DNA of 64,000 nt, from assembly GCA_014728125.1 (NCBI GenBank), contig WJMD01000014.1, positions 2,202 through 66,201 of the forward strand. The letters are read 5' to 3'. Shown in pieces: positions 2,065 to 59,244 of the stretch. The stretch is from Candidatus Effluviviaceae Genus V sp. Lineage in GTDB: Bacteria > Joyebacterota > Joyebacteria > Joyebacterales > Joyebacteraceae. Within the stretch, counting starts at the first letter, position 1. Every line of letters begins with the position of its first letter. Both the position numbers and the translations under genes were made by a program. Below the pieces are notes generated by a model. The model saw only the letters and a list, made by a program, of their open reading frames with translations. It did no database searches and was not told where the DNA came from.

Positions 2065-3240
2065 ATGGACAGAACCTCCTACGAGATCACCGCGTCCCTG
2101 AAGCACGGCGAGAGGACCTTCCGGTCGGCCGGCGGGCTCTTCTCGAAGAACAGGATCGCCAAGTCGACATCGCTGCTCGTCAACGCCATCTCGCCCGGGC
2201 CCGGCAACCGCATCCTCGATTACGGCTGCGGCTACGGCGCCGTCGGCATCGCGCTCGCCGACTCGGCTCCCGGGCTCGACATCCAGATGGTCGACTCCGA
2301 CATCCGCGCGGTGAGACTGGCGCAGCGGAACACGCGGGCGAACGAGGTGCGCAACGCTCACGTCCTGCTCGACCACACGCTCAACCGCTTCCCCAACGGT
2401 TCGTTCAACATCGTCGCTCTGAACCCTCCCGTGGACGACGGGACCGAGCTCATCTTCGAGATGATCGAGCGGGCCCAGCCCAAGCTCCGGCACGGCGGCT
2501 TCTTCTTCCTTGTGGCCAAGTCGAGCCGCGGCGCGCGAAGCTACATGAAGAAGCTGACGCGGACGGTCGGCCCGGCAAAGGTCGTCAAGCGCAGCGGCGG
2601 CTACTGGGTGATGCGGGCGGAGCGCAGCCCCATCCGTCCTCCGGAAGTCGTCGAACTCTCTCGATACGAACACACGGTCGAGGGGATCCTCCGCGGCCGG
2701 AAGTACAGCTTCAGAACGCGCGCGGGCATCTTCTCGCGGAAGGCCATCGACGACGGCACCGCGCTCCTCATCGAGTCGATCGATGTGCGTCCGCGGCACT
2801 CCGTCATCGACATAGGCTGCGGTTACGGTCCGATCGGGATCGTGTGCGCGCACCTGGCATCGGTCGGCCGCGTCGTCATGGTCGACTGTGACGCGAGGGC
2901 GGTGGAGTACGCCGACCTCAACATCCGGTCGCACCACCTCAACCACGCGCGGAAGAACGGCAAGCCGCGGGTCGAGGCCGTCCTCGGCGACCGGTTCGAC
3001 GCGGTCCCCGGCGAGCGCTTCGACCGCGTCGTCTCGAACCCGCCGTTCCACGCGGGCGTCGACGTCCTCCATCCGCTCGTCGAGGAGGCGCACCAGCATC
3101 TCCGGATCCACGGTCGGATGTACCTGGTTCTGATGCGCTACCGCGGCGTCCTCAAGCAGATGCGGCGCGTCTTCGGGAACGCCGCGGTCGTGGCGGAGGG
3201 CGAGAAGCACGTCGTCGTGATGTCCGAGAGGACGCGCTGA
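2065..3240 (+). CDS. rsmC: rRNA (guanine-N2)-methyltransferase, RsmC/RlmG family (tandem methyltransferase small domains)
   Basis: There are two consecutive MTase small domains, each with a GCGYG SAM motif (DYGCGYGAVG and DIGCGYGPIG). The C-terminal domain has the NPPFH catalytic motif (VVSNPPFHAG); the N-terminal domain has the degenerate NPPV. Confidence 0.7.
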   Translation: MDRTSYEITASLKHGERTFRSAGGLFSKNRIAKSTSLLVNAISPGPGNRILDYGCGYGAVGIALADSAPGLDIQMVDSDIRAVRLAQRNTRANEVRNAHVLLDHTLNRFPNGSFNIVALNPPVDDGTELIFEMIERAQPKLRHGGFFFLVAKSSRGARSYMKKLTRTVGPAKVVKRSGGYWVMRAERSPIRPPEVVELSRYEHTVEGILRGRKYSFRTRAGIFSRKAIDDGTALLIESIDVRPRHSVIDIGCGYGPIGIVCAHLASVGRVVMVDCDARAVEYADLNIRSHHLNHARKNGKPRVEAVLGDRFDAVPGERFDRVVSNPPFHAGVDVLHPLVEEAHQHLRIHGRMYLVLMRYRGVLKQMRRVFGNAAVVAEGEKHVVVMSERTR

Positions 3241-3660: not shown

Positions 3661-5028
3661 ATGGCGAGAGCCGCTGCGTGTGATGCCTTCCTTGATGGCG
3701 TCAAGGCGAAGAACCCGGCGCAGGACGAGTTCCACCAGGCGGTGTGCGAGGTCGTGGAGACGATCTGGCCCGTCCTCGACCAGCGCCCCGAGTACCGCAA
3801 GGCCAAGATCATCGAGCGGATCGTCGAGCCCGAGCGCATCATCATGTTCCGCGTTCCGTGGGTCGACGACTCCGGCGATGTCCATGTGAACCGTGGCTAC
3901 CGGATCGAGATGAACAGCGCGATCGGTCCCTACAAGGGCGGCCTCAGGTTCCACCCGAGCGTCAACCTCGGCATCCTCAAGTTCCTGGCCTTCGAGCAGG
4001 TTTTCAAGAACAGCCTGACGACGCTCCCGATGGGCGGCGGCAAGGGCGGTTCGGACTTCGATCCGAAGGGCAAGAGCGACACCGAGGTCATGCGCTTCTG
4101 CCAGGCCTTCATGAGCGAGCTGTTCCGTCACATCGGTCCGAACACCGACGTGCCGGCCGGTGACATCGGCGTCGGCGGCCGCGAGATCGGCTTCCTCTAC
4201 GGCCAGTACCGGAAGCTCACGAACGAGTTCACCGGCGTACTGACCGGCAAGGGCCGGAACTGGGGCGGCAGCCTCATCCGTCCCGAGGCGACGGGCTACG
4301 GCGCCGTCTACTTCGCGCAGGAGATGCTCGGAACCCGCGGCGAGGACCTCAAGGGCAAGACCTGCCTGGTCTCCGGCTCGGGCAACGTTGCGCAGTTCGC
4401 CTGCGAGAAGCTCCTCGACTTCGGCGCGAAGCCGGTCACGTTGTCCGACTCGTCCGGCTACATCTACGACGAGGAGGGCATCGACCGCGACAAGCTCGCG
4501 TTCGTCATGGAGCTCAAGAACGTCAAGCGCGGCCGCATCAAGGAGTACGCGGCGAAGTACTCGAACGCCGTCTATACCGAGCGCGATGCGAGCGCCGATC
4601 ACAACCCGCTCTGGAACCACAAGGCCGACTGCGCCTTCCCGAGCGCGACCCAGAACGAGATCAGCGAGAAGGACGCCCAGAACCTGGTCTCGAACGGCGT
4701 CTACGTCGTCTCCGAGGGCGCGAACATGCCGACGGTCCCCGAGGGCATCGAGATCTTCCTCGACAAGAAGATCCTCTACGGCCCCGGCAAGGCCGCGAAC
4801 GCCGGCGGCGTCGCCGTCTCCGGCCTCGAGATGAGCCAGAACAGCCTGAGGCTCTCCTGGACGCGCGAGGAGGTCGACAACCGCCTGCAGGGCATCATGA
4901 AGTCGATCCACTCGGCCGCCTTCGAGACCTCGAAGGAGTTCGGGGACGAGGGGAACTACGTCATGGGTGCGAACATCGCCGGCTTCATCAAGGTCGCCGA
5001 CTCGATGCTCGACCAGGGCGTCATCTAG
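3661..5028 (+). CDS. gdhA: NADP-specific glutamate dehydrogenase
   Basis: Hallmark GDH motifs are present: GPYKGGLRFHPSVN, LPMGGGKGGSDFDPKGKS, and the NAD(P) fold GSGNVAQFACEKL. AGGAGGAG RBS upstream. Confidence 0.95.
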   Translation: MARAAACDAFLDGVKAKNPAQDEFHQAVCEVVETIWPVLDQRPEYRKAKIIERIVEPERIIMFRVPWVDDSGDVHVNRGYRIEMNSAIGPYKGGLRFHPSVNLGILKFLAFEQVFKNSLTTLPMGGGKGGSDFDPKGKSDTEVMRFCQAFMSELFRHIGPNTDVPAGDIGVGGREIGFLYGQYRKLTNEFTGVLTGKGRNWGGSLIRPEATGYGAVYFAQEMLGTRGEDLKGKTCLVSGSGNVAQFACEKLLDFGAKPVTLSDSSGYIYDEEGIDRDKLAFVMELKNVKRGRIKEYAAKYSNAVYTERDASADHNPLWNHKADCAFPSATQNEISEKDAQNLVSNGVYVVSEGANMPTVPEGIEIFLDKKILYGPGKAANAGGVAVSGLEMSQNSLRLSWTREEVDNRLQGIMKSIHSAAFETSKEFGDEGNYVMGANIAGFIKVADSMLDQGVI

Positions 5029-5077
5029 CCCGTCACACCACGGCGGGTCGCGTCAATGATCCGCCGGACAACGAAGA

Positions 5078-5118
5078 GGGGGTCGGCATCCTCACTGCCG
5101 ACCCCCTTCTTCTTCTCT
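5078..5118. terminator. Bidirectional intrinsic terminator between convergent gdhA and the receiver-kinase gene
   Basis: An 11-bp stem GGGGGTCGGCA / TGCCGACCCCC with loop TCCTCAC is followed by TTCTTCTTCTCT. Confidence 0.6.
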
Positions 5119-5173
5119 GTACGTGTTGTCGGGCCGCGCCCCGGGGCAAAGCTCCCCGATCGCGCCCGCCTCC

Positions 5174-8167
5174 TCACCCGTCCGTCTTCCGTCCGTCCTT
5201 CCCCGGCTTCAGGATGACCCCGTGCCGGTCGGTGCTGTTGACGAGGATGCGGAGCGGCTCCTCGAGCCTGATGTGCCTCAGGTACCCGGTCTCCTCCTCG
5301 GCCGGCTGATTGTCGAGCCACTCGCTGTCGAGCGACGAGTGTTCGTCCTCCGGGCGCACCGTCAGGTACGCGATCCCGAACGAGGTGATGTTCTGGAAGA
5401 AGTGCGAGCCCTGGGACGGGTCGACCGCGATGTCGGGCATGTCGGTCTCGACGATCGCGCCGACCCCGGCGATCTGGCGCCAGCTGACGGGGATCCCGAG
5501 CCAGCGGTCCGCGCTTCCCCAGCGACCGGGACCGATGAGCAGGTACGTGCGCCCGGCGTCCCGGAGGGACCGGTCGAGCTTCCCGACCTCATCGGCGATC
5601 CTGACGGTCGCGTTCCGATCGAACGTGTCCGGGCGTACGTACACGATGTCGGTTATGCCCTCGGCCGCGCCGTGCCCGAGCGAGCTGCCGGACGAGCAGA
5701 GCACGTCGTCGCTGTCGATGCCGGAGAGGTCGATCTCCTCGGTCGAGGCCTCGAGGACGAGGGGCCTGATCTGGAGGAACGAGAACTCGTGGGGTCCGTC
5801 CTCGTTGAGCATGACCGCGAACTCGATCTCTACGTGGCACGTGAAGCCCGACTTCCCGACCTCCATCAGGAAAGCCAGCGTCTCCGGCAGCGGAAAACGG
5901 TCGCCCGAGAGCAGCCCGGCCATCGTGACGAGCTTGACCCCCGGCCTGCCCGAGCCGTCGTAGATGCGCTCGCTCTCCGGAACGTAGACCGAGCCGACGG
6001 GGAGGAAGGTCCCGTGTTCAGAGGCTGCCTCGACATCGAGAAGCGTCAGGTTCGCCTCCGGCTCGTCGGTCGGCTTCCGGACGGGAGCCTTCTTCGTCAG
6101 GTCGAGGGCATAGAACTGACGCTGCGCGTTGTTCAGGTAGTCGTCCGGCGTCGAGAACTGATAGAGCGCCCGGGGCTTCACCGGGGAGAACCGGATGCAG
6201 CGGCCCCCCTCGACAACGGTCTTCCCCATCCCGAGGGCGACGCAGGCGACGCCGTCCTCCGGCTCGATCCGCTTGATGGGATAGTGGTCGTACGTTCTGG
6301 CGACGCCCGCGGCGTTCGGATAGACGACGTCGCCGTGCCTCCGCCCCGTGATCTGCTGGATGACGACCGCCATCTTCTCCTCCTCGAGGCGGTTCGTCGT
6401 CGACTCGATGTAGCTCTTCGAGTCGGCCGAGTAGGTCGAGGCGTAGACCAGCCTGATCGCGCGGCAGAGTTCGTCGAGCCGCACCTCGAGGTCGTCGTGC
6501 GTGTTCGGGAGCATGTAGGTCTGGTAGATCCCGGCGAACGGCTGGTACGAGGAATCCTCGAAGAGGCTCGACGACCTGACCGCCAGGGGATACCGGACGC
6601 GCGAGAGAAAGGCCCGGAGCTCGCTGATGGTCTCCTCGGGAAGACGGGCGGCGAGGAAGGCCGCGCGGATGGTCACGTCGTCGTCCTCGGAGAGCGCCAG
6701 GGACGTGAGTCCCGACGTCTCCATGAACCGGTCGAAGACGTCGGTCGCCACGACGGCGGTCTGCGGTACCGTGATCCGAACGCCCGGAATCTTGTCCTCG
6801 ATCTCGTAGGCGTCCAGGAGCGAGTTCATGAAAGCCAGCCCTCTGCCCTTGCCTCCCAGCGACCCGCGTCCGATGCGCGTGAACGAAGTCTCTGCCTCGA
6901 AGGTCTCGCTGGAGAACTCCTCGACCAGACCGGCCCGGGCCCGGAATCTGTGTTCCTTGAGCGCTCGGAGGAGGTACTCCCGGAGTTCCTCGGAGGAGTC
7001 GAACTCGTCCGCGGCGATCGCCCGGAGCGCCTTGGCCAGGTCGAACTCGGTCCGGGCCATCAGCCAGGTCGAGAAGTCGTTGCGCCGGGCGTGGTACATG
7101 AGGGACTCGTCGGGGACGGTTCGCACCAGCTCGACGAGTCTCCTGAGGTCGCCGGCTCGCGCGACCTCCGTGCCGTCGGGCGTCCGGAAGATGAAGTCGC
7201 CGAACCCCAGATGGTCCCGCATGAAGGCGCGGACATCGTGCATCAGTGTCGGCGACGTCTTCTGAAGGAACGTGGCCCCGACGCTGAAGGCCTCCTCCGT
7301 GCAGGTCCGGGTCGTCGACTGGATGAGCACCGGCGTCGTCGGGTCGTGCTCCTTGACCATGGACGCGAAGGCTACGCCGGCCATGTCGTCCAGCTCGCCG
7401 TCCTTCGGGAATCGCGCGTCGACGATGACGCCGAGCATGTCCCCGCGGGCCTTCTCGTAGATCGCACGTCCCTCCTCGAAGGTCGTGGCGAGCAGGATCT
7501 TGGGGCGGGCCCGCATCCGCATGAGCTGCTGCATGCGGTTGACGCCCTCCGACATGAGGGCCTGCGTCTGCTCCATGATCTCGCCGTAGAGCATCGGCAG
7601 GTAGGCGGAGTAGAAGCGGACAGAGTCCTCCACGAGCAGGATGCTCATGACGCCGGCCGTCGCCGCGTCGTGCGCGCGGTTCATCCGGTCCTCGGCCCAC
7701 TTGATGATGGCGAGGAAGACCCGGGCGTCGCCGAGCCACACGAAGATGCGGTCGACGCACGAGAGGTCCTCCCGCGCCTTGAGAAGCGAGAGCTCTCTCG
7801 TGTCGTAGGCGAGGAGAACGACCGGGAGGTCGGACGAGTGGCTCTTGATGAGCCTGCCGAACTCGAAGACGTCCATGTCGCCGACGCGCGGCATCGTGAT
7901 GATGAGGTCGGGGTCGATCTCCTGTACCCGCTCGATGGCCTCGCGCGCGGTCGACACGCGGAAGATCGTCGGGGCGGAGCTCAGGTTCAGCTCCTGATAC
8001 TCGGTGAAGAGCATCTCGCCGAGGTTGCCGTCCTCCTGGAACGTGAACGAGTCGTACAGGCTCGACACCAGGAGAATGCGGCGCACGCGCCCCGGCATGA
8101 GATCGGAGAACGGCACGCGCTTACGCTCGATCGCCCCCGCGATCTCCTCGAGTGGTCTGAATCCCAC
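5174..8167 (-). CDS. Multidomain phosphotransferase: pseudo-receiver + receiver (REC) + PEP-synthase/PPDK-type ATP-grasp nucleotide-binding domain + C-terminal PEP-utilising swivelling phosphohistidine domain (PEP synthase / rifampin-phosphotransferase-like, lacks the PEP/pyruvate TIM barrel)
   Basis: REC1 (RILLVSSLYDS...DLIITMPRV) lacks the acidic pocket and the acceptor Asp. REC2 (ILLVEDS...GVIVDARFPKDGELDD...PVLIQSTT...FLQKT) is canonical. PPDK_N-type motif GRGSLGGKGRGLAFMNSL is present. The C-terminal segment GAIVETDMPDIAVDPSQGSHFFQN resembles the PEP-utilizer phospho-His segment. Start chosen is GTG 8167 (GGGGG 4 nt upstream); the alternative is ATG 8098. The ORF-track Met at 8326 would overlap the upstream gene by 150 bp. 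Confidence 0.65.
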   Translation of the reverse strand: MGFRPLEEIAGAIERKRVPFSDLMPGRVRRILLVSSLYDSFTFQEDGNLGEMLFTEYQELNLSSAPTIFRVSTAREAIERVQEIDPDLIITMPRVGDMDVFEFGRLIKSHSSDLPVVLLAYDTRELSLLKAREDLSCVDRIFVWLGDARVFLAIIKWAEDRMNRAHDAATAGVMSILLVEDSVRFYSAYLPMLYGEIMEQTQALMSEGVNRMQQLMRMRARPKILLATTFEEGRAIYEKARGDMLGVIVDARFPKDGELDDMAGVAFASMVKEHDPTTPVLIQSTTRTCTEEAFSVGATFLQKTSPTLMHDVRAFMRDHLGFGDFIFRTPDGTEVARAGDLRRLVELVRTVPDESLMYHARRNDFSTWLMARTEFDLAKALRAIAADEFDSSEELREYLLRALKEHRFRARAGLVEEFSSETFEAETSFTRIGRGSLGGKGRGLAFMNSLLDAYEIEDKIPGVRITVPQTAVVATDVFDRFMETSGLTSLALSEDDDVTIRAAFLAARLPEETISELRAFLSRVRYPLAVRSSSLFEDSSYQPFAGIYQTYMLPNTHDDLEVRLDELCRAIRLVYASTYSADSKSYIESTTNRLEEEKMAVVIQQITGRRHGDVVYPNAAGVARTYDHYPIKRIEPEDGVACVALGMGKTVVEGGRCIRFSPVKPRALYQFSTPDDYLNNAQRQFYALDLTKKAPVRKPTDEPEANLTLLDVEAASEHGTFLPVGSVYVPESERIYDGSGRPGVKLVTMAGLLSGDRFPLPETLAFLMEVGKSGFTCHVEIEFAVMLNEDGPHEFSFLQIRPLVLEASTEEIDLSGIDSDDVLCSSGSSLGHGAAEGITDIVYVRPDTFDRNATVRIADEVGKLDRSLRDAGRTYLLIGPGRWGSADRWLGIPVSWRQIAGVGAIVETDMPDIAVDPSQGSHFFQNITSFGIAYLTVRPEDEHSSLDSEWLDNQPAEEETGYLRHIRLEEPLRILVNSTDRHGVILKPGKDGRKTDG

Positions 8168-8175
8168 GACGCCCC

Positions 8176-10095
8176 CTAGGCCTTCTCCAGCAGAATGAGG
8201 CCGTTCTTCGGCGACAGCAGGCGGTCGTAGGCCGCCTTGAAGTCGGCGTACCGTTCGGGTGGAACCCGCTTCGAGAGGAACTCGATGCGCTTGGTCCAGA
8301 CGACCGAGCGCTCCTCCCGGTCCCACTCACACGCGAGTTCGAAGACGGCGTCGTCCGTCGCGACCTCGATCGGCTCGGGGATCCGGATCGGCTCGTAGCC
8401 CTCGGGAATCCGGGTCCTGAACTCGTAGATGCTCACGAGCTCGGCCGGAAGCATGAAGGAGAACTCCCGCTCCGCCAGCGACGGCTCGACGGCGACGCGC
8501 GCGAAGGCGAACGGGAACTCCGGGACGCGGAGGATCATCATGTCGCCCTGCGGCACTGCGAAATCGGGCGCGTCGATCGTCTGACGGACCCTGACCGGCT
8601 CGAGCAGGTTCTTGAGATCGGTCATGAAGTGCTCGACGTCGGTGGCTCCGGGACCGATGCTGCCGGTCGCCTCCTCGAAGAACTTCTGGACCTCGCTGTC
8701 GGTCGCGTCCTTGAGGGCGGCCCTGCACCTGCGGTCGAAGAACCCGGACACCTCGGCGTTCGCAACGAGCTCCGCCGCGCCGTCGTCGTCCAGCTCGGCG
8801 ACGATGCTGCGCTCGCTGGCGTTCTCGGACGGACTGAAGGGCGGTATCTCGACGAGCTCGCCGGAACCGTCATCCATGACGACGAGCCCCGTGTTGCCGC
8901 GACCCCAGTAGAGATAGCCGTAGTGCACGTTGTCGAGGAAGGGGTCGAGGAAGCGGTAGCCGTCGCTCGACCTGACAGCGACGAGGATACTGTCGAACTG
9001 CTCCAGCGTCGGCACGTCGTCGACGAATGTCACCGGGCCGTCGTTGACCAGCACCGGCCAGGCGTCGACGCCCGCCGCGCGCAGCATGCTGACCAGCAGC
9101 ACGGCCTTGTCACGGGTGTCGCCGTAGCGGTTCTCCATGACGAGCGACGCGTTGTTCGGCTCGTAGCCGCCGAGGCCGAGATCCAGATAGACGTTCCGGA
9201 CGTTCTCAGCAACCTCGAGGAAAACGTCACGGATGATCCCGTCGGTGTCGGCAGCCCCCTCGGTGATCTCCGCCGCGCGCGCCGCGACGTCACCGTCCGT
9301 CTCGACGTGCTTGTAGAAGACGTCGGCGAAGAAGGCCGACGGTCCCTGCCAGTCCTCGTACGAGGAGTAGACAGCGCGCGGGTAGAGCTCGGCCGTCGGG
9401 GGCATGTTCTCCTCGGGCACGAGCCCGGGCACGTCCCGTACGTGCCATGCCTGATCGTCGAAGTCGGCATCGGCATCCGCGAACCCGGCGTCGCCCTCAA
9501 CGACCGCCGTCGTCAGTGTCACGCCGTCCGGCAGCGTGAAGACGACCTCCTTGTCGAGGATCGGATCCTCTCCCCGGAAGTACTCGATCCCCGAGAAGCT
9601 GCCGTCGGGCGCGGGCTCCATGCGCGTCAGAAGCTGAAGCTCCATCGTCGAGCCCTTTCCGACGACCGGGAACGAGAACACCTTCTGGACGACGTTGGCG
9701 TAGATCGTCGCTCCCTCGAGGAACGCGGGCGTGACGTCGTTGATGGCGTCGGGCTCGATCTCGACCGTCCTGCCCGTCCGCCGGATGGTGACGCCCTTCA
9801 CAAGCTCGAGCTCCTCGCGGTCCGCGTTGTAGTAGAATGACTGGTTCGCGTAGTTCTCGCGGCCCTTGAGGGTCAGGGTCTTCGTCAGGACGTTTCTCCT
9901 TGTCGTGACGGCCCCCTCGGCGTCCACGTCGATCAACTTCTGGATCTTCAGGAACAGGGCCGAGGCGTCCGGGTACTCCTCGGCGTCCGGCGCGTTCTCC
10001 CGAAGCTCGGCCACGTCGACGTCCTGCCACTGGTCGCACCACGCGAGGGGAGCGGCCAGCGCGAGGATCAGAAGCACAGAGGCGAAGCGTCGCAT
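8176..10095 (-). CDS. Secreted DUF3857 + transglutaminase-like superfamily protein, catalytically degenerate paralog (Cys and His replaced)
   Basis: Signal peptide MRRFASVLLILALAAPLAWC. Core segment YGDTRDKAVLLVSMLRAAGVDAWPVLVN aligns to the active paralog's YGICRDKAVLMVAMLEQIGVPAWVTVIN, with Cys changed to Thr. The downstream His is lost (SILVAVRSSDGYRFLDPF versus FEHGIVAIEGENGEYVFIDPT). Its ATG directly abuts the TAG of the upstream gene (TAGATG). Confidence 0.7.
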   Translation of the reverse strand: MRRFASVLLILALAAPLAWCDQWQDVDVAELRENAPDAEEYPDASALFLKIQKLIDVDAEGAVTTRRNVLTKTLTLKGRENYANQSFYYNADREELELVKGVTIRRTGRTVEIEPDAINDVTPAFLEGATIYANVVQKVFSFPVVGKGSTMELQLLTRMEPAPDGSFSGIEYFRGEDPILDKEVVFTLPDGVTLTTAVVEGDAGFADADADFDDQAWHVRDVPGLVPEENMPPTAELYPRAVYSSYEDWQGPSAFFADVFYKHVETDGDVAARAAEITEGAADTDGIIRDVFLEVAENVRNVYLDLGLGGYEPNNASLVMENRYGDTRDKAVLLVSMLRAAGVDAWPVLVNDGPVTFVDDVPTLEQFDSILVAVRSSDGYRFLDPFLDNVHYGYLYWGRGNTGLVVMDDGSGELVEIPPFSPSENASERSIVAELDDDGAAELVANAEVSGFFDRRCRAALKDATDSEVQKFFEEATGSIGPGATDVEHFMTDLKNLLEPVRVRQTIDAPDFAVPQGDMMILRVPEFPFAFARVAVEPSLAEREFSFMLPAELVSIYEFRTRIPEGYEPIRIPEPIEVATDDAVFELACEWDREERSVVWTKRIEFLSKRVPPERYADFKAAYDRLLSPKNGLILLEKA

Positions 10096-12108
10096 CTAGC
10101 CCTCCTCTCTCTTGAGGATGATCTCGCCGCGGATCGACCGGTCCGCCATGCGGGCCGCGCGGCGCAGGTTCTTGTACTCCTCCGGCGATATCTGGAACGA
10201 GTCGACGCCGAACGACTTGGAGTAGCTGACAACACCCTCGCCTCCGGTCTCCGCGGGCGGCGAGTAGCCGTAGTCCAGGTCGAGCGACACGACACCCTGC
10301 TCGAACGTGACCGGGTCCGGCATGCTCTTGACGGTGAGTCCCTCGGGGATCGCGATTTCGGCCTCCTCGTTCAGGCCGATCGTGATGCCGAGGTGAACAG
10401 GGTGCTCCCTCTCGGGGAGCGACGTCAGTCTTCCGACCAGCAGCTGTGACATGAAGTCGAAGGCGCCGGTGGCCGACGGGACACGGAAGAGCACATATGG
10501 ATCGGCGTCGAGCAGATAGTCATCGACGGCGTAGCCGACGGTGATCGTCAGCGGCGTCGAGAGGTCCTCCGGGTCCGACGAGTCGAAGCTCGTCATCGTG
10601 GCGCCCGGATAGAGCGCCTGGACCGACTCCTCCCACATCATCTTCATCTGCTGAGGCGAGGTGGCCCTGGCGATCTGGCGGAGGATCTCCTCGTACATCC
10701 CGTTGCCCGTGACGGTCACCGTTCCGGAGATCGATCCGTCCTCGGAGAGCTCGGCCTTCTCTACGATCATTCCGGAGTTCCTGCTCGGCGGATAGTGCGG
10801 GGCCTTGAGGAGTTCCTCGCCGCCCTCCCTGAGGACCATGACCCAGCGGTCCCCGGGGTAGGTGGCGTAGACCTCGCGGCTGGTCTCCTGCGTCGGGTCG
10901 ATGAAGACGTACTCGCCGTTCTCGCCCTCGATCGCGACGATGCCGTGCTCGAACGACGTGTTCGGGACCTCGGGGTCGGTCTTCTTAGAAACGTTGATCA
11001 CCGTCACCCACGCGGGGACGCCGATCTGCTCGAGCATGGCCACCATGAGAACGGCCTTGTCGCGGCAGATGCCGTACTCCTTCTCGAGGGTGTACGCAGG
11101 CGTGTGCGGCTCGAGGAAGGCCCCGAAGTCCATCCCGATCCCCAGGTAGCGGACGTTCTCGAGAATCCAGTAGTGGATCGCGCGGATCTTCTGCTCCTTC
11201 GTCTCGAGGCCCTCCGTCAGGTCGGCGACCAGCTCGCGGACCTGATCGTCGGCGATGCACTTGTCGTCGTACATCCGCCAGAGTTTGTCGGAGAGCTCCT
11301 CCCACTCGTGGACGGTCGAGACGTTGACGCGCGTGGCGATCTGCGCCATCGGCGCCATACCGATCTCCCGCTCGATCTTCGGAACGTCCCGGGCTGTCCA
11401 TGTGTAGTACGTCCAGTCCCCGCCCTCGCCGCGGTCCGGGTCCTCGACGACAGACCGTTCCTCGAACTCGACCTCGACGTCGCCGACGACGGCGTGCTTC
11501 AGGGGCATGTCCGGCGGACCCTGGATCGTCACGCTCGACTCGAGGATCGGCTCGCTGAACTGGAGGTAGAACGTCTGTGCGAAGGCGTCCTCGATGAGCG
11601 GCTCGTAGTCGTCGTGCGTCAGGAGCTCGATGGCGTCGCCCGGCTCGAGGTTCGGGAAGACGATCGTCTTCTCCCGGAAATCGGTCTCGTAGATGTTCAT
11701 CGCAGAGAGCGAGGGAGGCGTGCCGTCCGTGACCAACTCGTCTCCGACGACGATCTCCGAACCGTCCGGCTTGATGACGCGCGCCATCAGGATCTCGTTG
11801 GTGCCGTAGCGCTGGTGGTAGACGGCCGAGTGGTCGGCGAAGTCGTCGACGCCCTCGTCTGTCAGGACTTTCGTGAGAGAGTGGCTGTACTGCTCGAACG
11901 CGCCCGTCTCGTCGAACTCGACCAGCGTACGGTCGAAGATGACCACCGCGTTCGCGTCCGGGTGCTCCTCGACGCCGCCGGCCTCGCCGATGATCCGCGC
12001 GGCCTCGTCGAGCTCGAGCGGCTCGGGGGCCGCGGCCGTCGGCACGGCGGGTGCCGTTGCGGCGACGAACACACTAAAGAGGAGTATTAGGTGTCTTCCC
12101 GCAGACAT
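10096..12108 (-). CDS. Secreted DUF3857 + transglutaminase-like cysteine-protease superfamily protein (Cys-His-Asp retained)
   Basis: Start is ATG at 12108 with AAGGAG RBS. Signal peptide MSAGRHLILLFSVFVAATAPAVPTAAAPE. Transglutaminase-like core GICRDKAVLMVAML...HGIVAIE...FIDPTQE. The long ORF-track extension to 13233 is a P/R-rich non-coding read-through and was rejected. Confidence 0.7.
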   Translation of the reverse strand: MSAGRHLILLFSVFVAATAPAVPTAAAPEPLELDEAARIIGEAGGVEEHPDANAVVIFDRTLVEFDETGAFEQYSHSLTKVLTDEGVDDFADHSAVYHQRYGTNEILMARVIKPDGSEIVVGDELVTDGTPPSLSAMNIYETDFREKTIVFPNLEPGDAIELLTHDDYEPLIEDAFAQTFYLQFSEPILESSVTIQGPPDMPLKHAVVGDVEVEFEERSVVEDPDRGEGGDWTYYTWTARDVPKIEREIGMAPMAQIATRVNVSTVHEWEELSDKLWRMYDDKCIADDQVRELVADLTEGLETKEQKIRAIHYWILENVRYLGIGMDFGAFLEPHTPAYTLEKEYGICRDKAVLMVAMLEQIGVPAWVTVINVSKKTDPEVPNTSFEHGIVAIEGENGEYVFIDPTQETSREVYATYPGDRWVMVLREGGEELLKAPHYPPSRNSGMIVEKAELSEDGSISGTVTVTGNGMYEEILRQIARATSPQQMKMMWEESVQALYPGATMTSFDSSDPEDLSTPLTITVGYAVDDYLLDADPYVLFRVPSATGAFDFMSQLLVGRLTSLPEREHPVHLGITIGLNEEAEIAIPEGLTVKSMPDPVTFEQGVVSLDLDYGYSPPAETGGEGVVSYSKSFGVDSFQISPEEYKNLRRAARMADRSIRGEIILKREEG

Positions 12109-12324
12109 GCAGGCTCCTTTCGGATTGAGTGGTGCGTCAGTTCCGCTTCTCGTTGTTACATCTGTACTTCGGGAAACGATTATGCATGGAGAAGGGTCGA
12201 AGGGCAAGTGGCTCAGGAGGAGGCGGCCGGGCAGCTTGGTGCGTCCGCCGACCTTGTGGTACCATCCGCAGGGACGCGCGGACCTCAGTCCGGGCGTCCG
12301 ACTCGATGCACAACGGGAGGCACG

Positions 12325-13716
12325 ATGAGAGAACAGAGGGCGTTGAGACCGATGATGCTGCGTCTCGTGTGGCTGACGGCGGCCGTTGTCGTTCTCGGCG
12401 GGTCGGCGGCCGCACAGGAGACCGCCCCGTACATGACGCCGACGGCTCCGCCTGAGAGCGGGTACGGTTACAACGTCCCGCTCCCTCGCTGGCTCGTCGA
12501 GTCGTCCCTGGAGCACCGTCGGGCCTTCATCGAGGGTGTTGCGGGCGAGGCGGTCACGCTCGCCGAGACGGACGAGGAGACGGGGATGGGCCTGGTTCTC
12601 GCGTCGGCCGGGGAGCTGGCGGGGGTGACCGAGCGCATCGAGTCGACGATCGCGCAGATCGGTGAGATCGACTCCGCGTTCGGGATCCGCGGCATCTCCA
12701 GACTGGTGACGGCCGAGGGCGCGGTCCGCGACACGTTGTTCGGCTTCGTCGTGTGGCACGAGTCCGCCGCGGGGGAGAGCCGGAAGATAGCGAGGGAGTT
12801 CGAGGACACCGTCGACCGCCTGCTGGCGCTCGGCCAGGCCGCCGACCGGATCGGCGGCGAGCTCTCGTCGAGCGCGCGCGCCGGCCGCCGCGCGCTGGAC
12901 AAGGGTGAGTACAGCTCGATCGCGGAGTCGGCGGTCACCATCAACCAGGCGACGGCGAACCTGGGAACCGTGGCGAACGAAGTGGTTGCGAAGGCGGACG
13001 AACTCGAGGAGATTGTGTGGGAGATTCGGGAGAGCGGCAGCACCCTTCTGGACGCCGAGTGGGACCAGGTCCTTCTGGCGACGAGCGAGGCCCGGCGGCT
13101 CGCGGCGCGGATAGTCCCGGCCCTCGAGGAGGCTCGGACATCGAGTCTCGCGTTCGGGGGCATGGCGACCGCGCTCCAGGAGATCCTCGGAACGCTGGAT
13201 ATGGTCGAGGACGCGCCTCGGCAGAACGGGCACTACGCCGTCCCGTGGAAGGTATTCCTTCGCGATCAGGAGGTCGTCGGCGATATGGTCCAGGGGATCC
13301 TCGAGATGGAGGGTCTCGATGAGATCGTCACGACCAGGGTGAGCGATCTGGCGAGACGTATCGTGATGGCCGACAGGCTGCTGGTCGAGTACGGCGTCTA
13401 CTACACGGGTAACTATGTCGCCGGCGTCAGGGACGATATCGAGGCGCGCTACAGGGAGGACGCCGGGTACAGCGACAACGACCCGCAGAGCGAACGGCTC
13501 GACGTGCTCGAGGAGGTCGACCGCCGGCTCAGGGAAGATCTGGAGCTTCAGACGGCGCTCTTCGCCGCGACCTCGATGCGGACCGCCTTCGCGTCAGGGC
13601 AGGCCGCCGAGGGCGGGGCGATCGGGTCCGAGAGGACCGCGCTCAGCCACTACAAGAACGCTTGGCTCCACGCGCTCAACGCGGGCGCGATGGTCGACCG
13701 GGCCGCCTCTGACTGA
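12325..13716 (+). CDS. Secreted alpha-helical/coiled-coil protein of unknown function
   Basis: ATG 12325 is preceded by GGGAGG. Signal peptide MREQRALRPMMLRLVWLTAAVVVLGGSAAAQ. The remainder is helical and E/R/A-rich. It is divergent from the transglutaminase-like operon. Confidence 0.5.
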   Translation: MREQRALRPMMLRLVWLTAAVVVLGGSAAAQETAPYMTPTAPPESGYGYNVPLPRWLVESSLEHRRAFIEGVAGEAVTLAETDEETGMGLVLASAGELAGVTERIESTIAQIGEIDSAFGIRGISRLVTAEGAVRDTLFGFVVWHESAAGESRKIAREFEDTVDRLLALGQAADRIGGELSSSARAGRRALDKGEYSSIAESAVTINQATANLGTVANEVVAKADELEEIVWEIRESGSTLLDAEWDQVLLATSEARRLAARIVPALEEARTSSLAFGGMATALQEILGTLDMVEDAPRQNGHYAVPWKVFLRDQEVVGDMVQGILEMEGLDEIVTTRVSDLARRIVMADRLLVEYGVYYTGNYVAGVRDDIEARYREDAGYSDNDPQSERLDVLEEVDRRLREDLELQTALFAATSMRTAFASGQAAEGGAIGSERTALSHYKNAWLHALNAGAMVDRAASD

Positions 13717-13740: not shown

Positions 13741-14439
13741 ATGATCCGGGGCGTCTACTTCGACGCGGGCAACACGCTCATCTTTCCAGACTACGGGATC
13801 TACCGTGACGTGGCCGGCAGGCTCGGCGCTGCGATCGGCGTCGATGATGCCGTCGCGGCCGAGGCGCACGCGCGCTCGGCGTTCGATGAGGCGGTGGCTT
13901 CGTCGTCCGGGCGTGATGTAATGTCCTTCTGGGACATCTACTACACACCGTTCTACAGGCATCTCGGTCTGGCGGAGGAGAGCATCCCGGCCGCCATCGA
14001 GCTCACGCGCGACGCCAACGACGAAGGTCTCGGCATCTGGAAGGTGCCCGTCGAGGGGTACCGCGACACGATCGGGGCGCTGCGCGAGAGGGTCGATGTC
14101 ATCGGCATCGTCTCGAACTCTGACGGTCGTCTCGACGACAGGCTCAGGGGGATCGGCATCCGCGACGACTTCGACTTCGTCATCGACTCGGCGGTCGTCG
14201 GTACGAGCAAGCCCGACGTCGCGATCTTCCGGGCGGCCCTCGACCTGGGCGGGCTGTCGCCCGAGGAGGTGGTCTACGTCGGCGACTACTACGCGGTCGA
14301 CGTGGTCGGCGCGCGGGGCGCCGGCATCCGTCCCGTGCTCTTCGATCCTGTAGGGGCCTACGGTCCGGTGGACTGCGACATCATGACGACGTTCCCCGAG
14401 ATCGTCGGGCTCGTCGACGCCTGGAGGGAGGGCGCGTGA
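13741..14439 (+). CDS. HAD-superfamily hydrolase, subfamily IA
   Basis: Motif I at the N-terminus (VYFDAGNTL). Motif II IGIVSNSDG, then K in TSKPD, and motif IV YVGDYYAVDVVGARGAG. Confidence 0.75.
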   Translation: MIRGVYFDAGNTLIFPDYGIYRDVAGRLGAAIGVDDAVAAEAHARSAFDEAVASSSGRDVMSFWDIYYTPFYRHLGLAEESIPAAIELTRDANDEGLGIWKVPVEGYRDTIGALRERVDVIGIVSNSDGRLDDRLRGIGIRDDFDFVIDSAVVGTSKPDVAIFRAALDLGGLSPEEVVYVGDYYAVDVVGARGAGIRPVLFDPVGAYGPVDCDIMTTFPEIVGLVDAWREGA

Positions 14440-24863: not shown

Positions 24864-26297
24864 ATGCTGGGACGCCACAGAAAGGAGGCGCGCGTCGGCT
24901 CGTCGCGCGACGAGCGCCTCGTCTTCCACATCGACATGGACGCGTTCTTCGCCTCGGTCGAGGTGATGTGCCGCCCGAAGCTCAAGGGTTTGCCGGTCAT
25001 CGTCAGCGGCAAGCCGACCACCAGGAGCGTCGTGGCGGCGGCGTCGTACGAGGCGCGCGAGTACGGGATCCACTCGGCGATGCCGACGGCGGAAGCGTTC
25101 CGGCGCTGCCCGCACGTCGTCGCCGTCGAGGGGAACCCGGGGCAGTACATCTACGTCTCGCTCGAGCTCCTCCGCATCTACAAGTCGTACTCGACCGTCG
25201 TCGAGCCGTACTCGATAGACGAGGCGTTCGTCGAGATGACCGGGACCGAGTGCACCTGGGAGAACGCGCACGAGGTCGCCCGGGAGATCAAGAGGAGGGT
25301 ACGCGAGCGCTTCGGCGGCATCACGGCCTCGATCGGGATCGGCCCGAACAAGCTCATCGCGAAGATGTGCTCAGGGATGCAGAAACCCGACGGCATGACC
25401 GTCATCTCCCCGGGCGAATTCATGAGGGTCTTCGGGGACCGACCGGTGACCGACATCTGGGGCGTCGGGACGAAGACCGCGGTCGCCCTCGGTATGATGG
25501 GCGTCACGACCATCGGCGAGCTCTCGGAGTTCCCGGTCTCCATGCTCCGGCGTCGCTTCGGCATCATGGGGGAGATCCTCCACCTGATGGCGTGCGGCCA
25601 GGACGACACGCCGGTCGTGCCCTACTACGAGGGAATGCCGGTCCGGTCGATGGGCCACGAGCACACGTTGCCGGAGGACACCTGGGACATCCGGGAGGCC
25701 GAGAAAGTGCTCCTCCGCCTGTGCGACCAGGTGGCCAGGCGCATGCGGAAGAAGGAGTACATGGGGAACGTCATCTCGATGCGTCTGAGGTTCTCGGATT
25801 TCGACTCGGTCGGTCGTCAGAGGAAGATCAGGTTCTACACCGACGAGGAGCGCGTCATCTACCGGGTCGCGCGCGATCTCATGCACCGCCACTGGCGGCC
25901 CGGTCAGGCGATCCGGCTCGTGGGGGTCAACTGCTCGGGGCTGGTGCGCGTTCCGGAGGTCATGCAGATCGACCTCTTCCGGCAGAAGGACGAGGACTCG
26001 CACCGGAAGCTCCTGAACGCTCTCGATGCGATCCGTGATAAGTTCGGGGAGGAGGCCATCACCCGCGCCCGCCTCATCTCGAGGAACGCGAAGATGTGGT
26101 ACTCGAAGCACCGTGTCTCGGAGCCGCGCTTCATGCGGATGGGCCTGGGGGAGGACCGGCCTCCGTCGATCATGGCCGGCTGGCACGACGCGGCGCCCAA
26201 CCTCGACTCCATTCCGCTCCCGCCGGGCCTCTCGTCGAGCCCGTCCGACATGCTCAGGTTCCAGGACATCGACGACGGGGGGACGCCGCGCGGCTGA
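24864..26297 (+). CDS. dinB: DNA polymerase IV (Y-family, DinB)
   Basis: HIDMDAFFASVE catalytic Asp motif and YSIDEAFVE, as in canonical DinB/UmuC. Confidence 0.9.
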   Translation: MLGRHRKEARVGSSRDERLVFHIDMDAFFASVEVMCRPKLKGLPVIVSGKPTTRSVVAAASYEAREYGIHSAMPTAEAFRRCPHVVAVEGNPGQYIYVSLELLRIYKSYSTVVEPYSIDEAFVEMTGTECTWENAHEVAREIKRRVRERFGGITASIGIGPNKLIAKMCSGMQKPDGMTVISPGEFMRVFGDRPVTDIWGVGTKTAVALGMMGVTTIGELSEFPVSMLRRRFGIMGEILHLMACGQDDTPVVPYYEGMPVRSMGHEHTLPEDTWDIREAEKVLLRLCDQVARRMRKKEYMGNVISMRLRFSDFDSVGRQRKIRFYTDEERVIYRVARDLMHRHWRPGQAIRLVGVNCSGLVRVPEVMQIDLFRQKDEDSHRKLLNALDAIRDKFGEEAITRARLISRNAKMWYSKHRVSEPRFMRMGLGEDRPPSIMAGWHDAAPNLDSIPLPPGLSSSPSDMLRFQDIDDGGTPRG

Positions 26298-27680: not shown

Positions 27681-30053
27681 GTGGAGATAGCCCGGTTCCT
27701 CGAGTCCCTCCGGCATCACAGGTACTACCGCGGGCAGATCGCTCACATCGAGGCCGTGCCGGCCCGCGAGGCGCGGTACGGTGAGCTTGGACGGCCGCTG
27801 CCCGGGCCGCTCGCCTCCGCCCTGTCGGCCGCCGGCATCGAGCGGCTCTACTCGCACCAGGTCGAGTCGATCGACGCGGTGCGGCGGGGGGAGAACGTCG
27901 TCGTCGTGACGGGCACAGCGTCCGGGAAGACGCTCTGCTACAACGTCCCGGTCATCGAGACGCTTCTCGAGGAGCCCTCCTCGAAGGCGCTCTACCTCTT
28001 TCCCACGAAGGCCCTCGCGCAGGACCAGCAGCGGGGGCTTCTCCGGCTGCGCGAACTCGACGCACGCATCGGAGGAGCAGTGCGGTCGGGGACCTACGAC
28101 GGCGACACCACGCGGCACACGCGACGGAAGCTCCGCGACGAGGGGAACATCATCCTCTCGAACCCCGACATGCTGCACGCGGCCATCCTCCCGTACCACG
28201 CCAAGTGGAACCGGTTCTTCAAGGACCTGAAGTACGTCGTGGTCGACGAGATCCACACGTACCGCGGCATCTTCGGCTCGAACGTCGCCAACGTCCTCAG
28301 GAGGCTCCGGCGCGTCTGTGAACACTACGGCTCGCAGCCTCAGTTCATCGCCTCGAGCGCCACGATCGCCAACCCCGGCGAGCTGGCCGAGGGTCTGACG
28401 GGCCTTCCGTTCAGGACGGTCGACACGGACGGGAGTCCCAGGGGGCGGAAGTACTTCGTGCTCTGGAATCCGCCCTTCCTCGATGAGGCCGAGATGGAGC
28501 GCAGAAGCTCGAACGTCGAGGGGCACTGGCTCATGGCCGAGCTCATCGCGGCCGGGTTCCAGACGATCGCCTTCGGCCGGGCGCGCGTGGTCGCCGAGCT
28601 CATCTACCGGTACGCCAAAGACACCCTGGCCCGGACCAAGCCCGAGTATGCCCGGAAGATCCGCCCGTACCGGGGAGGCTATCTCCCCGAGGAGCGGCGC
28701 GAGATCGAGCGGCAGCTCTTCAGTGGAGAGCTGATGGGCGTGGCGAGCACCAACGCGCTCGAGCTCGGCATCGATGTCGGGAGCTTGGACGCCGCCATCA
28801 TCGTCGGCTTCCCGGGCACGATCGCGAGTTCGTGGCAGCAGGCGGGCAGGGCCGGGCGAACCTCCGACGAGTCGCTGGCCGTCCTCGTCGGCTACAACGA
28901 CCCGATCGACCAGTACCTCATGCGCCACGGCGAGTACTTCTTCAGCCAGTCGCCGGAGAGCGCCGTCATCGACCCGGAGAACCGCTACATCCTGGCCAAG
29001 CACCTGCGGTGCGCAGCCTTCGAGCTGCCGGTGACCGGTCGTGACGCCGAGCTCTTCGGCGACCTGACGGAGCCGATCCTCGCGCTCCTGGAGGAGTTCC
29101 ATGAGGTCCGCGAGCTCGACGGACGCCACTACTGGGCATCGACCGAGTATCCGGCGCGCCAGGTGAGCCTCCGGACCATCTCGGACGACACGTACACCAT
29201 CGTCGACGTCGGCGACGAGAACCGGACGGTCGGCGTCGTCGACGGCGTGTCGGCGCTCGAACTCGTCTACCCCGAGGCCATCTACCTGCATGAGGGGGAG
29301 ACCTACTTCGTGCGCGATCTCGACCTGGAGCAGAAGATTGCGTACGTCGAGAAGAAGGAGGTCGACTACTACACGCAGCCGATCCTCGAGTCATCCATCC
29401 GCGTCGAAGGGGAACGGGAGCACACCGCACGATCGGACGGAAGGCTGGTCTTCGGGGACGCGACCGTCACGTGGATGACGGCCGCCTTCAAGAAGATCCA
29501 GTTCTACAAGATGGACTCGATCGGCTGGTCGAACCTCGACCTGCCTCCGTTCCATCTGGAGACCCACGCGCTCTGGTTCATTCCCTCGAAGGAGATGATG
29601 GCGTCGGTGCGCGAGCGGGGCAGGAACCCGGTCGAGGGGCTTGTCGGCATACGGAACATGGCGATCAGCGTGCTGCCGCTCTTCGCCATGTGCGACCGAC
29701 GGGACATCGGGGGGATCGTCGAAAGCTCCAACACCGGGGCTCCGACGATGTTCCTCTACGACCGCTACGAGGGCGGTCTCGGGTTCGTCGAGCAGGGCTA
29801 CCGCCGCTTCGACGAACTCCTTACGGGGTGTCTCGATCTCGTCGAGGAGTGTCCGTGCGAGGACGGCTGTCCGTCGTGCGTCGGGCTCCCGGTGCTCAGA
29901 CCCCCGGTGCAGCAGGACCCCGACTCGCAGGGAGGCTGGCCGATCCCCGATAAGGAGTCGGCGCGCCTTCTGCTTCGGTCCATCCTTGGGGTTACTGCTC
30001 GGGAAGCCCCTCGGCCAGGACCTGGAAGTGATGCCCGGCGATCGCCAGCGTGA
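27681..30053 (+). CDS. mrfA: DEAD/DEAH-box helicase with C-terminal DUF1998 Cys4 zinc module (MrfA/YprA-like DNA repair helicase)
   Basis: Walker A GTASGKT, DExH VVVDEIH, the helicase C domain, and C-terminal ECPCEDGCPSC. Confidence 0.8.
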   Translation: MEIARFLESLRHHRYYRGQIAHIEAVPAREARYGELGRPLPGPLASALSAAGIERLYSHQVESIDAVRRGENVVVVTGTASGKTLCYNVPVIETLLEEPSSKALYLFPTKALAQDQQRGLLRLRELDARIGGAVRSGTYDGDTTRHTRRKLRDEGNIILSNPDMLHAAILPYHAKWNRFFKDLKYVVVDEIHTYRGIFGSNVANVLRRLRRVCEHYGSQPQFIASSATIANPGELAEGLTGLPFRTVDTDGSPRGRKYFVLWNPPFLDEAEMERRSSNVEGHWLMAELIAAGFQTIAFGRARVVAELIYRYAKDTLARTKPEYARKIRPYRGGYLPEERREIERQLFSGELMGVASTNALELGIDVGSLDAAIIVGFPGTIASSWQQAGRAGRTSDESLAVLVGYNDPIDQYLMRHGEYFFSQSPESAVIDPENRYILAKHLRCAAFELPVTGRDAELFGDLTEPILALLEEFHEVRELDGRHYWASTEYPARQVSLRTISDDTYTIVDVGDENRTVGVVDGVSALELVYPEAIYLHEGETYFVRDLDLEQKIAYVEKKEVDYYTQPILESSIRVEGEREHTARSDGRLVFGDATVTWMTAAFKKIQFYKMDSIGWSNLDLPPFHLETHALWFIPSKEMMASVRERGRNPVEGLVGIRNMAISVLPLFAMCDRRDIGGIVESSNTGAPTMFLYDRYEGGLGFVEQGYRRFDELLTGCLDLVEECPCEDGCPSCVGLPVLRPPVQQDPDSQGGWPIPDKESARLLLRSILGVTAREAPRPGPGSDARRSPA

Positions 30054-58468: not shown

Positions 58469-58476
58469 CTGTGCTC

Positions 58477-59244
58477 CTAGCTTCCGGTGGTCTCGGTTGT
58501 CTCGGGCCTCAGAAGCTGCTCCAGTCGCTCCCTCAGCGCCTGCGGCGTCAACCCCCTGGAGATCTGCCCGGCGAGGGCCAGCGAGATCTGTCCGGTCTCC
58601 TCGGAGACGACGACGACGACGGCGTCCGTCTCCTCCGTCAGGCCGACTGCGGCGCGGTGACGCGTCCCCAGCGTGTGCACGAAGTACGGGTTCTGCGAGA
58701 GCGGCAGCGTGCACCGTGCCGCGATGATCCTGTCAGCGTTGATGATGACCGCCCCGTCGTGAAGCGGCGTCAGCGGCGTGAAGATCGAGACGATCAGCGA
58801 CGAGACGACGGGAGAGCCCAGCAGGACCCCGGTCTGGTAGTAGTTGGTGAGCCTCGCCGAACGCTCGATGACGACGAGCGCCCCCGTCTTCTTCTGTGCG
58901 AGCGTCTTCGCCGCCGTCACGACAGCCTCGATGGCCTCGTGCTCCTCGACCTTGACGAACGGCCTGAAGAGCCGGCTCTGACCGACCTGTCCCAGCAACC
59001 GCCGGAGCTCCTGCTGGAAGAGGATGACGAAGATGATCGCCCAGACGCCGCGGAGGCCGGACATCAGCCAGTTCAGAGCGTCGAGCTGAAGCCATCGGGC
59101 GACGAAACCGATGACGACGATGACGATGAGCGAGATGAGCATCTGCATCGCCCGCCGGCCCCGCATGAGCAGCAGAAGCTGATAGACGATGAACGCCATG
59201 ATGGAGACGTCGATGATGTCGATGAGGATCCGCCATCCTGTCAT
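58477..59244 (-). CDS. cdaA: Diadenylate cyclase CdaA (membrane-anchored DAC domain, c-di-AMP synthase)
   Basis: Three N-terminal TM helices. DAC motifs LHDGAVII and GTRHRAAVGLTEETDAVVVVVSEETG. The ATG overlaps the folP stop (ATGA). Confidence 0.85.
   Translation of the reverse strand: MTGWRILIDIIDVSIMAFIVYQLLLLMRGRRAMQMLISLIVIVVIGFVARWLQLDALNWLMSGLRGVWAIIFVILFQQELRRLLGQVGQSRLFRPFVKVEEHEAIEAVVTAAKTLAQKKTGALVVIERSARLTNYYQTGVLLGSPVVSSLIVSIFTPLTPLHDGAVIINADRIIAARCTLPLSQNPYFVHTLGTRHRAAVGLTEETDAVVVVVSEETGQISLALAGQISRGLTPQALRERLEQLLRPETTETTGS

Follow-up and report, generated by a model that had tools for sequence, protein, structure and literature searches.

A widespread family of receiver-fused PPDK-type ATP-grasp proteins with a conserved C-terminal histidine and genes often adjacent to glutamate dehydrogenase

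Rifampin phosphotransferase (RPH) carries a rifampin-binding domain of ~430 amino acids (aa) between its ATP-grasp and swivel domains, and has no receivers. Enzyme I of the phosphotransferase system has none either; it is charged by phosphoenolpyruvate (PEP) via a TIM barrel and not by ATP via an ATP-grasp domain. In PleD, a stem of receiver domains dimerises on phosphorylation. In HpeHI, the swivel-domain histidine takes up phosphate at the ATP site and delivers it to the substrate site (PMC12167813). The census of response regulators by Galperin et al. (2018) lists, as "REC-PPDK", an architecture in which one or more receivers are fused to a nucleotide-binding domain of the pyruvate phosphate dikinase (PPDK) type, and gives for it no function, C-terminal analysis, pseudo-receiver or linkage to glutamate dehydrogenase (GDH). 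Here we describe a protein with this architecture, encoded in a 64,000-nt stretch of DNA (the window; contig WJMD01000014.1 of assembly GCA_014728125.1, positions 2,202 to 66,201, forward strand), together with the family to which it belongs. The family is widespread, uncharacterised and already catalogued; its association with GDH genes is strong, previously unreported and our main new result.

The REC-PPDK gene, at positions 5174..8167 on the minus strand, codes for a protein of 997 aa, in agreement with a sequence-only reading of this DNA, which had placed a protein of about 1000 residues there. An identical protein of 997 aa (P0001) is held by NCBI under the name 'MAG: histidine kinase [Candidatus Eisenbacteria bacterium]'. 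Neither HisKA/DHp nor HATPase_c was found in the protein with Pfam and NCBIfam at E<=1, and this name is therefore without domain basis. The start codon is a GTG at 8167, preceded by a GGGGG ribosome-binding site and located 8 nt beyond the upstream gene's stop codon. Because the G+C content of the window is ~66%, long open reading frames (ORFs) run on both strands across 5.1-8.3 kb. The motifs GGKGRGLAFMNSL and SQGSHFFQN are both found in the minus-strand translation of 5174..8167, and the plus-strand ORF 5123..8179, with its low-complexity, Arg/Gly-rich translation, was set aside as a shadow of the minus-strand gene. An AlphaFold2 model of the whole protein, with 48 homologues as input, has a predicted local distance difference test (pLDDT) score of 81.6 and contains, in order, a pair of consecutive (beta-alpha)5 units, a beta-hairpin plus a bundle of five helices, an ATP-grasp domain and a separate C-terminal alpha/beta domain. 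The protein is thus made up of five domains: a pseudo-receiver, a receiver, a DUF5752-like domain, a PPDK_N domain and a C-terminal His domain. Four of these had been recognised beforehand, in the correct order; the DUF5752-like domain at residues 337-407 had been missed.

In the window, the gene is convergent with gdhA (3661..5028, plus strand), which encodes an NADP-specific GDH of 455 aa (ELFV_dehydrog in Pfam; NCBIfam PRK09414, 752 bits versus a cutoff of 536). The intergenic region between them holds a bidirectional terminator-like hairpin at 5076..5108, with a stem of 12-13 bp on two strands; two sites of this kind were found, against 0.2 expected in shuffles. The wider neighbourhood was surveyed over 84 non-redundant loci, with all ORFs in the examined flanks clustered. 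GDH proved to be the sole widely recurring neighbour family besides antisense shadow ORFs: it lies within the flanks in 44 loci and is the immediate neighbour (<400 bp) in 38, while the next most common real families are present in no more than five. A genome is expected to hold one or two copies of the GDH gene. Of the 38 adjacent genes, 25 share the strand of REC-PPDK (13 downstream of it and 12 upstream), 7 are divergent and 6 convergent, and some of the gaps are just 4-7 bp. Two loci have GDH on both sides of the REC-PPDK gene, and two more have a second, more distant copy on one side. Linked loci come from Bacteroidota, Ignavibacteria, Acidobacteria, Desulfobacterota, Myxococcota and Gemmatimonadales, as well as Fibrobacteres, Eisenbacteria, Calditrichaceae, Thermoleophilia and Hyphomicrobiales. 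Because GDH adjoins the gene in half of the loci, across a wide phylogenetic range and in all orientations, a pattern attributable neither to inherited synteny nor to chance, a functional link between the two is likely. A literature search for work joining a REC-PPDK-type protein with GDH found nothing.

Several of the minor neighbours are enzymes of the glutamate node, namely a Glu_synthase (PF01645)-like protein and a saccharopine dehydrogenase accompanied by an aldehyde dehydrogenase. In gut Phocaeicola, malic enzyme and GDH are followed by two to four variable genes, then by REC-PPDK and a divergent second GDH. In Bacteroides thetaiotaomicron, BT_1969 encodes malic enzyme, BT_1970 and BT_1973 both encode GDH and BT_1971 encodes catalase; synteny with Phocaeicola predicts that BT_1972 is the REC-PPDK orthologue. 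The short divergent gdh/REC-PPDK intergenic region of Phocaeicola contains a called ORF of 38 aa (6828-6944 in loci L086-L088), which could encode a leader peptide or have been called spuriously. Archaea of the Thalassarchaeaceae/Marine Group II (L023, L058 and L076) have homologues of ~975 aa in which the architecture is complete. At these three loci GDH lies ~2.1-2.3 kb upstream on the opposite strand, with room for one gene between, a layout that suggests horizontal transfer of the GDH and REC-PPDK pair. Sigma-54-dependent activators (NtrC-family AAA+) occur within a few kb in four loci that have no adjacent GDH (L003/L004, L026, L013 and L078).

The family is large. Both C-terminal motifs are present in at least 595 species genomes, and 2220 clusters at 50% identity match a family profile at E<=1e-3, 603 of them at E<=1e-30. 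Carriers include Eisenbacteria, Holophagae, Thermoanaerobaculia, Myxococcota and Desulfobacterales; Bacteroidota (Prevotella, Bacteroides/Phocaeicola, Paludibacter and the cultured Thermophagus xiamenensis); and Ignavibacteria, Fibrobacteres, Gemmatimonadales, Actinomycetes and Thalassarchaeaceae archaea. In all, the architecture spans more than 12 phyla plus some archaea. It is very common in Phocaeicola of the human gut, where one protein variant occurs in 1446 index blocks. Length is nearly always 975-1100 aa; the ~1000-aa architecture was seen at 54 of the 68 loci from which the motif-bearing ORF was recovered, the shorter ORFs being mostly cut by contig ends. The sequence-only reading had judged the gene the most unusual in the window, but its architecture is no rarity, being present in hundreds of species and listed in the census. 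The architecture is common, then, but its function is uncharacterised.

Rare relatives of 1500-1650 aa (P0364, P0365 and P0367) carry the PPDK_N ATP-grasp and C-terminal domains twice in tandem, and Response_reg has no Pfam match in them. Because such receiver-less relatives exist, the ATP-grasp and C-terminal domains together form an autonomous catalytic module, to which the receivers are a regulatory add-on. P0367 also has a C-terminal nucleotidyltransferase domain of the NTP_transf_2/Pol-beta type, a fold shared with GlnE and GlnD, the protein-nucleotidylyl transferases of nitrogen control. Other apparent variants were discounted. Short matches suggestive of a stand-alone C-terminal domain are fragments at contig ends, and matches of ~720-770 aa that appear to lack receivers start inside REC2 and are probably truncated calls. 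One C-terminal-only protein of 219 aa (P0189) directly follows a REC-PPDK_N ORF of 756 aa, so it represents a split or frameshifted gene. The locus concerned, L005, is on a 1.26-Mb contig, with the longer ORF at 3675-5945, the shorter at 6001-6660 and GDH immediately upstream; the split is either an assembly frameshift or a genuine break at a domain boundary.

Response_reg matches the whole protein in two stretches (34.9 bits versus a Pfam cutoff of 30.2), and scores of 21.7 and 21.2 bits are obtained when REC1 and REC2, respectively, are scanned alone. Residue conservation was counted over 58 full-length homologues from species genomes, with 39-66% identity. REC1 (residues 28-171; 7655..8086, minus strand) has the (beta-alpha)5 fold according to secondary structure, Pfam and Foldseek. 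It has S35/S36 where an acidic pair is expected and Met92 at the acceptor position, a column in which the homologues have M, T, L, V or A but no Asp. Because the fold is receiver-like yet the acceptor Asp and the acidic pocket are absent, REC1 is classed as a conserved pseudo-receiver, in line with the degenerate receiver of the sequence-only reading. REC2 (residues 173-320; 7208..7651, minus strand) has the features expected of a PF00072 receiver, namely an acidic pair (E180/D181), an acceptor Asp (D250, codon 7418-7420), a Ser/Thr (S284) and a Lys (K303), all of which fall on strands predicted by the AlphaFold model. E180 and K303 are present in all 58 homologues, and D181 and D250 in 57. 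The description of this domain as canonical holds; its 'conserved T' is a Ser here, with Ser in 55 homologues and Thr in three. A helical insertion of ~40 residues after beta1 is also conserved. Compared by Foldseek with the Protein Data Bank (PDB), the model matches the REC-REC' tandem of PleD at E 5e-9. PleD likewise has a stem of receiver and pseudo-receiver ahead of an enzymatic output; in REC-PPDK the order is inverted, with the pseudo-receiver first, and the output is a dikinase-like module instead of GGDEF.

REC2 is joined to the ATP-grasp by the DUF5752-like domain (residues 323-410; 6938..7201, minus strand), predicted as a beta-hairpin followed by a five-helix bundle. PF19027 (DUF5752) matches residues 337-407 with 36 bits against a cutoff of 23, and gives sub-threshold scores of 21-22 bits in the shorter homologues P0385 and P0413. 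A literature search on DUF5752 returned nothing. The PPDK_N-type ATP-grasp occupies residues 428-803 (5759..6886, minus strand). PF01326 matches residues 436-807 at E 1.3e-37 over profile positions 3-313 of 328. K440 (in GGKG), R531-S-S-S, E537/D538, E780/E782 and Q799/R801 are invariant in all 58 homologues, and F544-A-G belongs to the same set of motifs. The RSS-ED-FAG and ExE...QxRP blocks align with those of HpeI and RPH, and the top PDB match of the model by Foldseek is the HpeI ATP-grasp (9goj, E 3.6e-10). The residues K440, R531, E537/D538, E780/E782 and Q799/R801 are presumably those that bind ATP and Mg in the PPDK structure. The domain thus belongs with the ATP-grasp of the PEP synthase/PPDK/RPH dikinase superfamily, as had been claimed.

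Beyond the ATP-grasp, REC-PPDK departs from each of the described systems. No TIM barrel (PEP-utilizers_C, PF02896) was matched in Pfam, and the protein stops ~190 aa after the ATP-grasp, so the absence of this domain, noted earlier from the sequence, stands. No substrate domain is recognisable, the DUF5752-like linker of ~90 aa being all that lies between the receivers and the ATP-grasp. Compared with PpsA and PPDK, the protein lacks the PEP/pyruvate TIM barrel and a PF00391 sequence match and has an N-terminal REC-REC-DUF5752 extension; the NCBIfam models for PpsA score it at 17.5-54.5 bits versus cutoffs of 598-1063 (one of them 25.4 versus 739.75). Compared with RPH (PDB 5hv1), it lacks the rifampin-binding domain and the canonical TSH motif and has two receivers; NCBIfam NF041857 gives 30.5 versus a cutoff of 999, with residues 459-629 alone matching. 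The earlier equation of the protein with the architecture of RPH was therefore mistaken. The best structural match to the ATP-grasp, HpeI, is the ATP-grasp component of a two-component small-molecule dikinase (HpeHI; phenylphosphate synthase type). Such systems are catabolic and have no receivers, and their swivel domain sits on a second subunit (HpeH) together with a substrate-binding domain, unlike in REC-PPDK. Enzyme I differs in that REC-PPDK has an ATP-grasp and receivers.

The C-terminal domain (residues 820-990; 5198..5710, minus strand) is unannotated and is separated from the ATP-grasp by ~15 residues in the AlphaFold model. Two invariant motifs mark it, GPGRWGSxD (879-887) and PSQG[ST]HFF[QH]N. 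His922 (codon 5402-5404), S918 and G920 are kept in all 150 representatives found with the profile, which share no more than 50% identity with each other. A dedicated model of the domain (pLDDT 85.4) has a swivelling beta/beta/alpha-like fold. The figures listed for it are 6.8 for both the PEP-utilizer-like C-terminal domain of B. stearothermophilus pyruvate kinase and maize PPDK, 6.4 for RPH, and 6.1, 5.7 and 5.6 for Enzyme I. The predicted order of elements is a YLLIGP strand, a loop and short helix, a GAIVETD strand, a flexible loop, His922, which the model places at the first turn of a helix, and an AYLTV strand. This matches the order in PPDK (VILVR - helix - GILTV - GGMTS-H-helix - CCVSG). 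The ending EIVVDxxxGxGVxxKPG resembles the VxVDGxxGxV ending of PEP-utilizers. The glycine-rich GPGRWGSxD loop has no counterpart in the six canonical PEP-utilizers domains aligned. The best reading, from fold and topology, is that this is probably a divergent phospho-His swivel domain. It is also the weakest point of the sequence-only reading, whose motif SQGSHFFQN is present and whose PEP-utilizer swivel domain has support from fold and topology but none from sequence.

The REC2 pocket, the nucleotide and Mg residues of the ATP-grasp and His922 are strictly conserved, and control of the ATP-grasp and His-domain module by the receivers is, we infer, the most reasonable reading. Asp250 of REC2 would be phosphorylated by a histidine kinase encoded elsewhere or by a small phosphodonor, and REC1 would act as a PleD-like adaptor or dimerisation partner, so that the two domains together would switch the catalytic module on or off. 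The ATP-grasp would move phosphate from ATP onto His922 of a mobile C-terminal domain, with dikinase chemistry yielding AMP and inorganic phosphate, and the phospho-His domain would hand its phosphate to an acceptor, which would be external because the protein has neither a TIM barrel nor an RPH-type substrate domain. The earlier reading spoke of an unknown substrate; the strong linkage to GDH genes narrows the choice. Gene neighbourhood would place the acceptor at the glutamate/2-oxoglutarate node, with GDH itself the most likely candidate and a metabolite of that node a less likely one. Were GDH the acceptor, REC-PPDK would be a GDH-modifying enzyme controlling ammonia assimilation. A protein acceptor is credible because Enzyme I passes phosphate from a swivel-type His to the protein HPr, and PSRP (ydiA), encoded beside its target ppsA, is an example of a regulatory phosphotransferase next to a metabolic target.

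These proposals differ in strength. That the protein is a receiver-regulated, ATP-dependent phosphotransferase seems to us reasonably probable. For the fuller statement, that it is a response-regulator-class enzyme of the PEP-synthase/PPDK/RPH dikinase superfamily acting as a phosphotransferase at the GDH node, the balance tips only slightly in favour. Direct phosphorylation of GDH is speculative, and although GDH is the leading acceptor candidate we consider it doubtful. The most ambitious form, in which REC-PPDK represents an unrecognised class of receiver-controlled protein phosphotransferases that switch hexameric GDH by His-mediated transfer from ATP, is unlikely. Overall, the sequence-only reading is partly supported: a dikinase-like, receiver-gated module remains, and the analogy with RPH is loose.

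A number of observations weigh against this phosphotransfer scheme. The C-terminal domain has no match to PEP-utilizers in Pfam at E<=10, and its family profile found nothing among all PDB sequences at E<=10. Comparison by hhalign of family alignments of 15 and 169 sequences with six PDB-verified PEP-utilizers domains gave probabilities of 0.2-0.5%, and the sole aligned part, five columns at LGIPV (0.5%), was dismissed as noise. A Foldseek search of the PDB with the C-terminal model returned no match at E<=0.001. SQG[ST]HFF stands in place of the canonical GG-x-TSH motif, and the loop ahead of His922 is longer and modelled at low confidence (pLDDT 59-67). Beyond this domain, an H-box/G-box scan of the window and a Pfam search of 20 of its ORFs revealed no histidine kinase, and about half of the 84 loci are without GDH in the examined flanks. 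Adjacency alone cannot tell GDH as a target from co-regulation or a shared pathway, and a literature search gave no functional or experimental study of the family. In one rival account, the C-terminal domain is not a phosphoryl carrier. His922 and the GPGRWGS loop would then bind a ligand or partner, the protein would be an ATP-grasp ligase, a nucleotide sensor or a non-catalytic regulator, and its output would be binding, to GDH for instance, instead of phosphotransfer. We regard such a role as improbable.

The kinase question bears on a different account, in which the protein is a self-contained phosphorelay. The ATP-grasp and His922 would form an unorthodox autokinase that phosphorylates Asp250 of its own REC2, in effect an ATP-grasp-type 'histidine kinase' with a fused receiver, and the phosphorylated receiver pair would signal a partner such as GDH by protein contact. 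Transfer from His to Asp is what two-component systems ordinarily do, a gene for a cognate kinase is linked neither in the window nor at the other loci surveyed, and the protein is without a substrate-binding domain. The conserved helical insertion of REC2 could dock another domain, and NCBI names many family members 'histidine kinase'. With HisKA and HATPase_c absent, however, that name lacks a domain basis, and response regulators often occur as orphans. The N-terminal place of the receivers is that seen in response regulators with output domains, whereas hybrid kinases carry them at the C terminus; tandem catalytic pairs exist without receivers, so the module functions without one; and we know of no precedent for a phospho-His of the PEP-utilizer type donating to a receiver Asp. 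A self-relay is, on these grounds, very unlikely. Nor do we think it likely that REC-PPDK is a small-molecule dikinase, a view near to that of the sequence-only reading, whose receivers set its activity on a metabolite or xenobiotic, perhaps a glutamate-node metabolite bound at the DUF5752-like domain or a domain interface. The characterised bacterial ATP-grasp relatives known to us (PpsA, PPDK, RPH, HpeHI and PigC/RedH) act on small molecules, no role has been assigned to the conserved DUF5752-like domain, and the neighbours (GDH, Glu_synthase-like and saccharopine dehydrogenase) are metabolic. Such enzymes have or recruit a large domain for substrate binding (a TIM barrel, a rifampin-binding domain or HpeH), though, and none of these is present here; a regulatory REC-REC front end would be unusual on a catabolic kinase, and no other conserved pathway genes that might use a phosphorylated product accompany the gene.

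The preferred reading, receiver-controlled phosphotransfer at the GDH node, gives the family its interest. To our knowledge, Bacteroidota and many other carrier phyla are without the classical NtrBC/GlnE paradigm, and the control of ammonia assimilation in them is poorly understood. Because its acceptor receiver and ATP site are intact and its adjacency to gdhA is far above chance, REC-PPDK is a candidate for the missing regulator, and may control nitrogen assimilation. If so, a post-translational control of ammonia assimilation would be common to Bacteroidota, including gut Phocaeicola, Acidobacteria, Desulfobacterota, Eisenbacteria and others. The PEP-synthase/RPH dikinase superfamily would be extended to signalling, with a new and unannotated type of His domain, and two-component signalling would gain an enzymatic output class that has so far been a census entry only. 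If the link to GDH reflects co-regulation only, what is left is a well-defined domain family yet to be assigned a function. The value of the finding lies in the whole family: a widespread signalling enzyme whose His domain is unannotated and whose genes are associated with GDH.

Of the remaining genes in the window, the two immediately upstream of REC-PPDK are paralogues that encode DUF3857 and transglutaminase-core proteins, of 639 aa (8176-10095, minus strand, with a signal-peptide-like N terminus) and 1045 aa (10096-13233, minus strand). REC-PPDK is the last of these three co-directional genes and, with a gap of 8 nt, is probably co-transcribed with the pair. As functional partners the two were discounted, since the pair recurs in only four other loci, three of the Eisenbacteria group and one from an unclassified bacterium (L007, L012, L014 and L015). 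Ordinary neighbours on the plus strand are an LPG_synthase_TM membrane protein (72-1718), a methyltransferase with two MTS-type domains, similar to RsmC/RlmG (2065-3240), and a HAD hydrolase (13741-14439). What remains of the window has the look of housekeeping genes, among them a DinB/IMS polymerase (24864-26297), an MrfA-type DEAD helicase with an MZB domain (27681-30053), a 2-oxoacid:ferredoxin oxidoreductase subunit (34551-36212), an M16 peptidase (53103-55703) and a TMEM260-like O-mannosyltransferase with TPR repeats (55781-58714).

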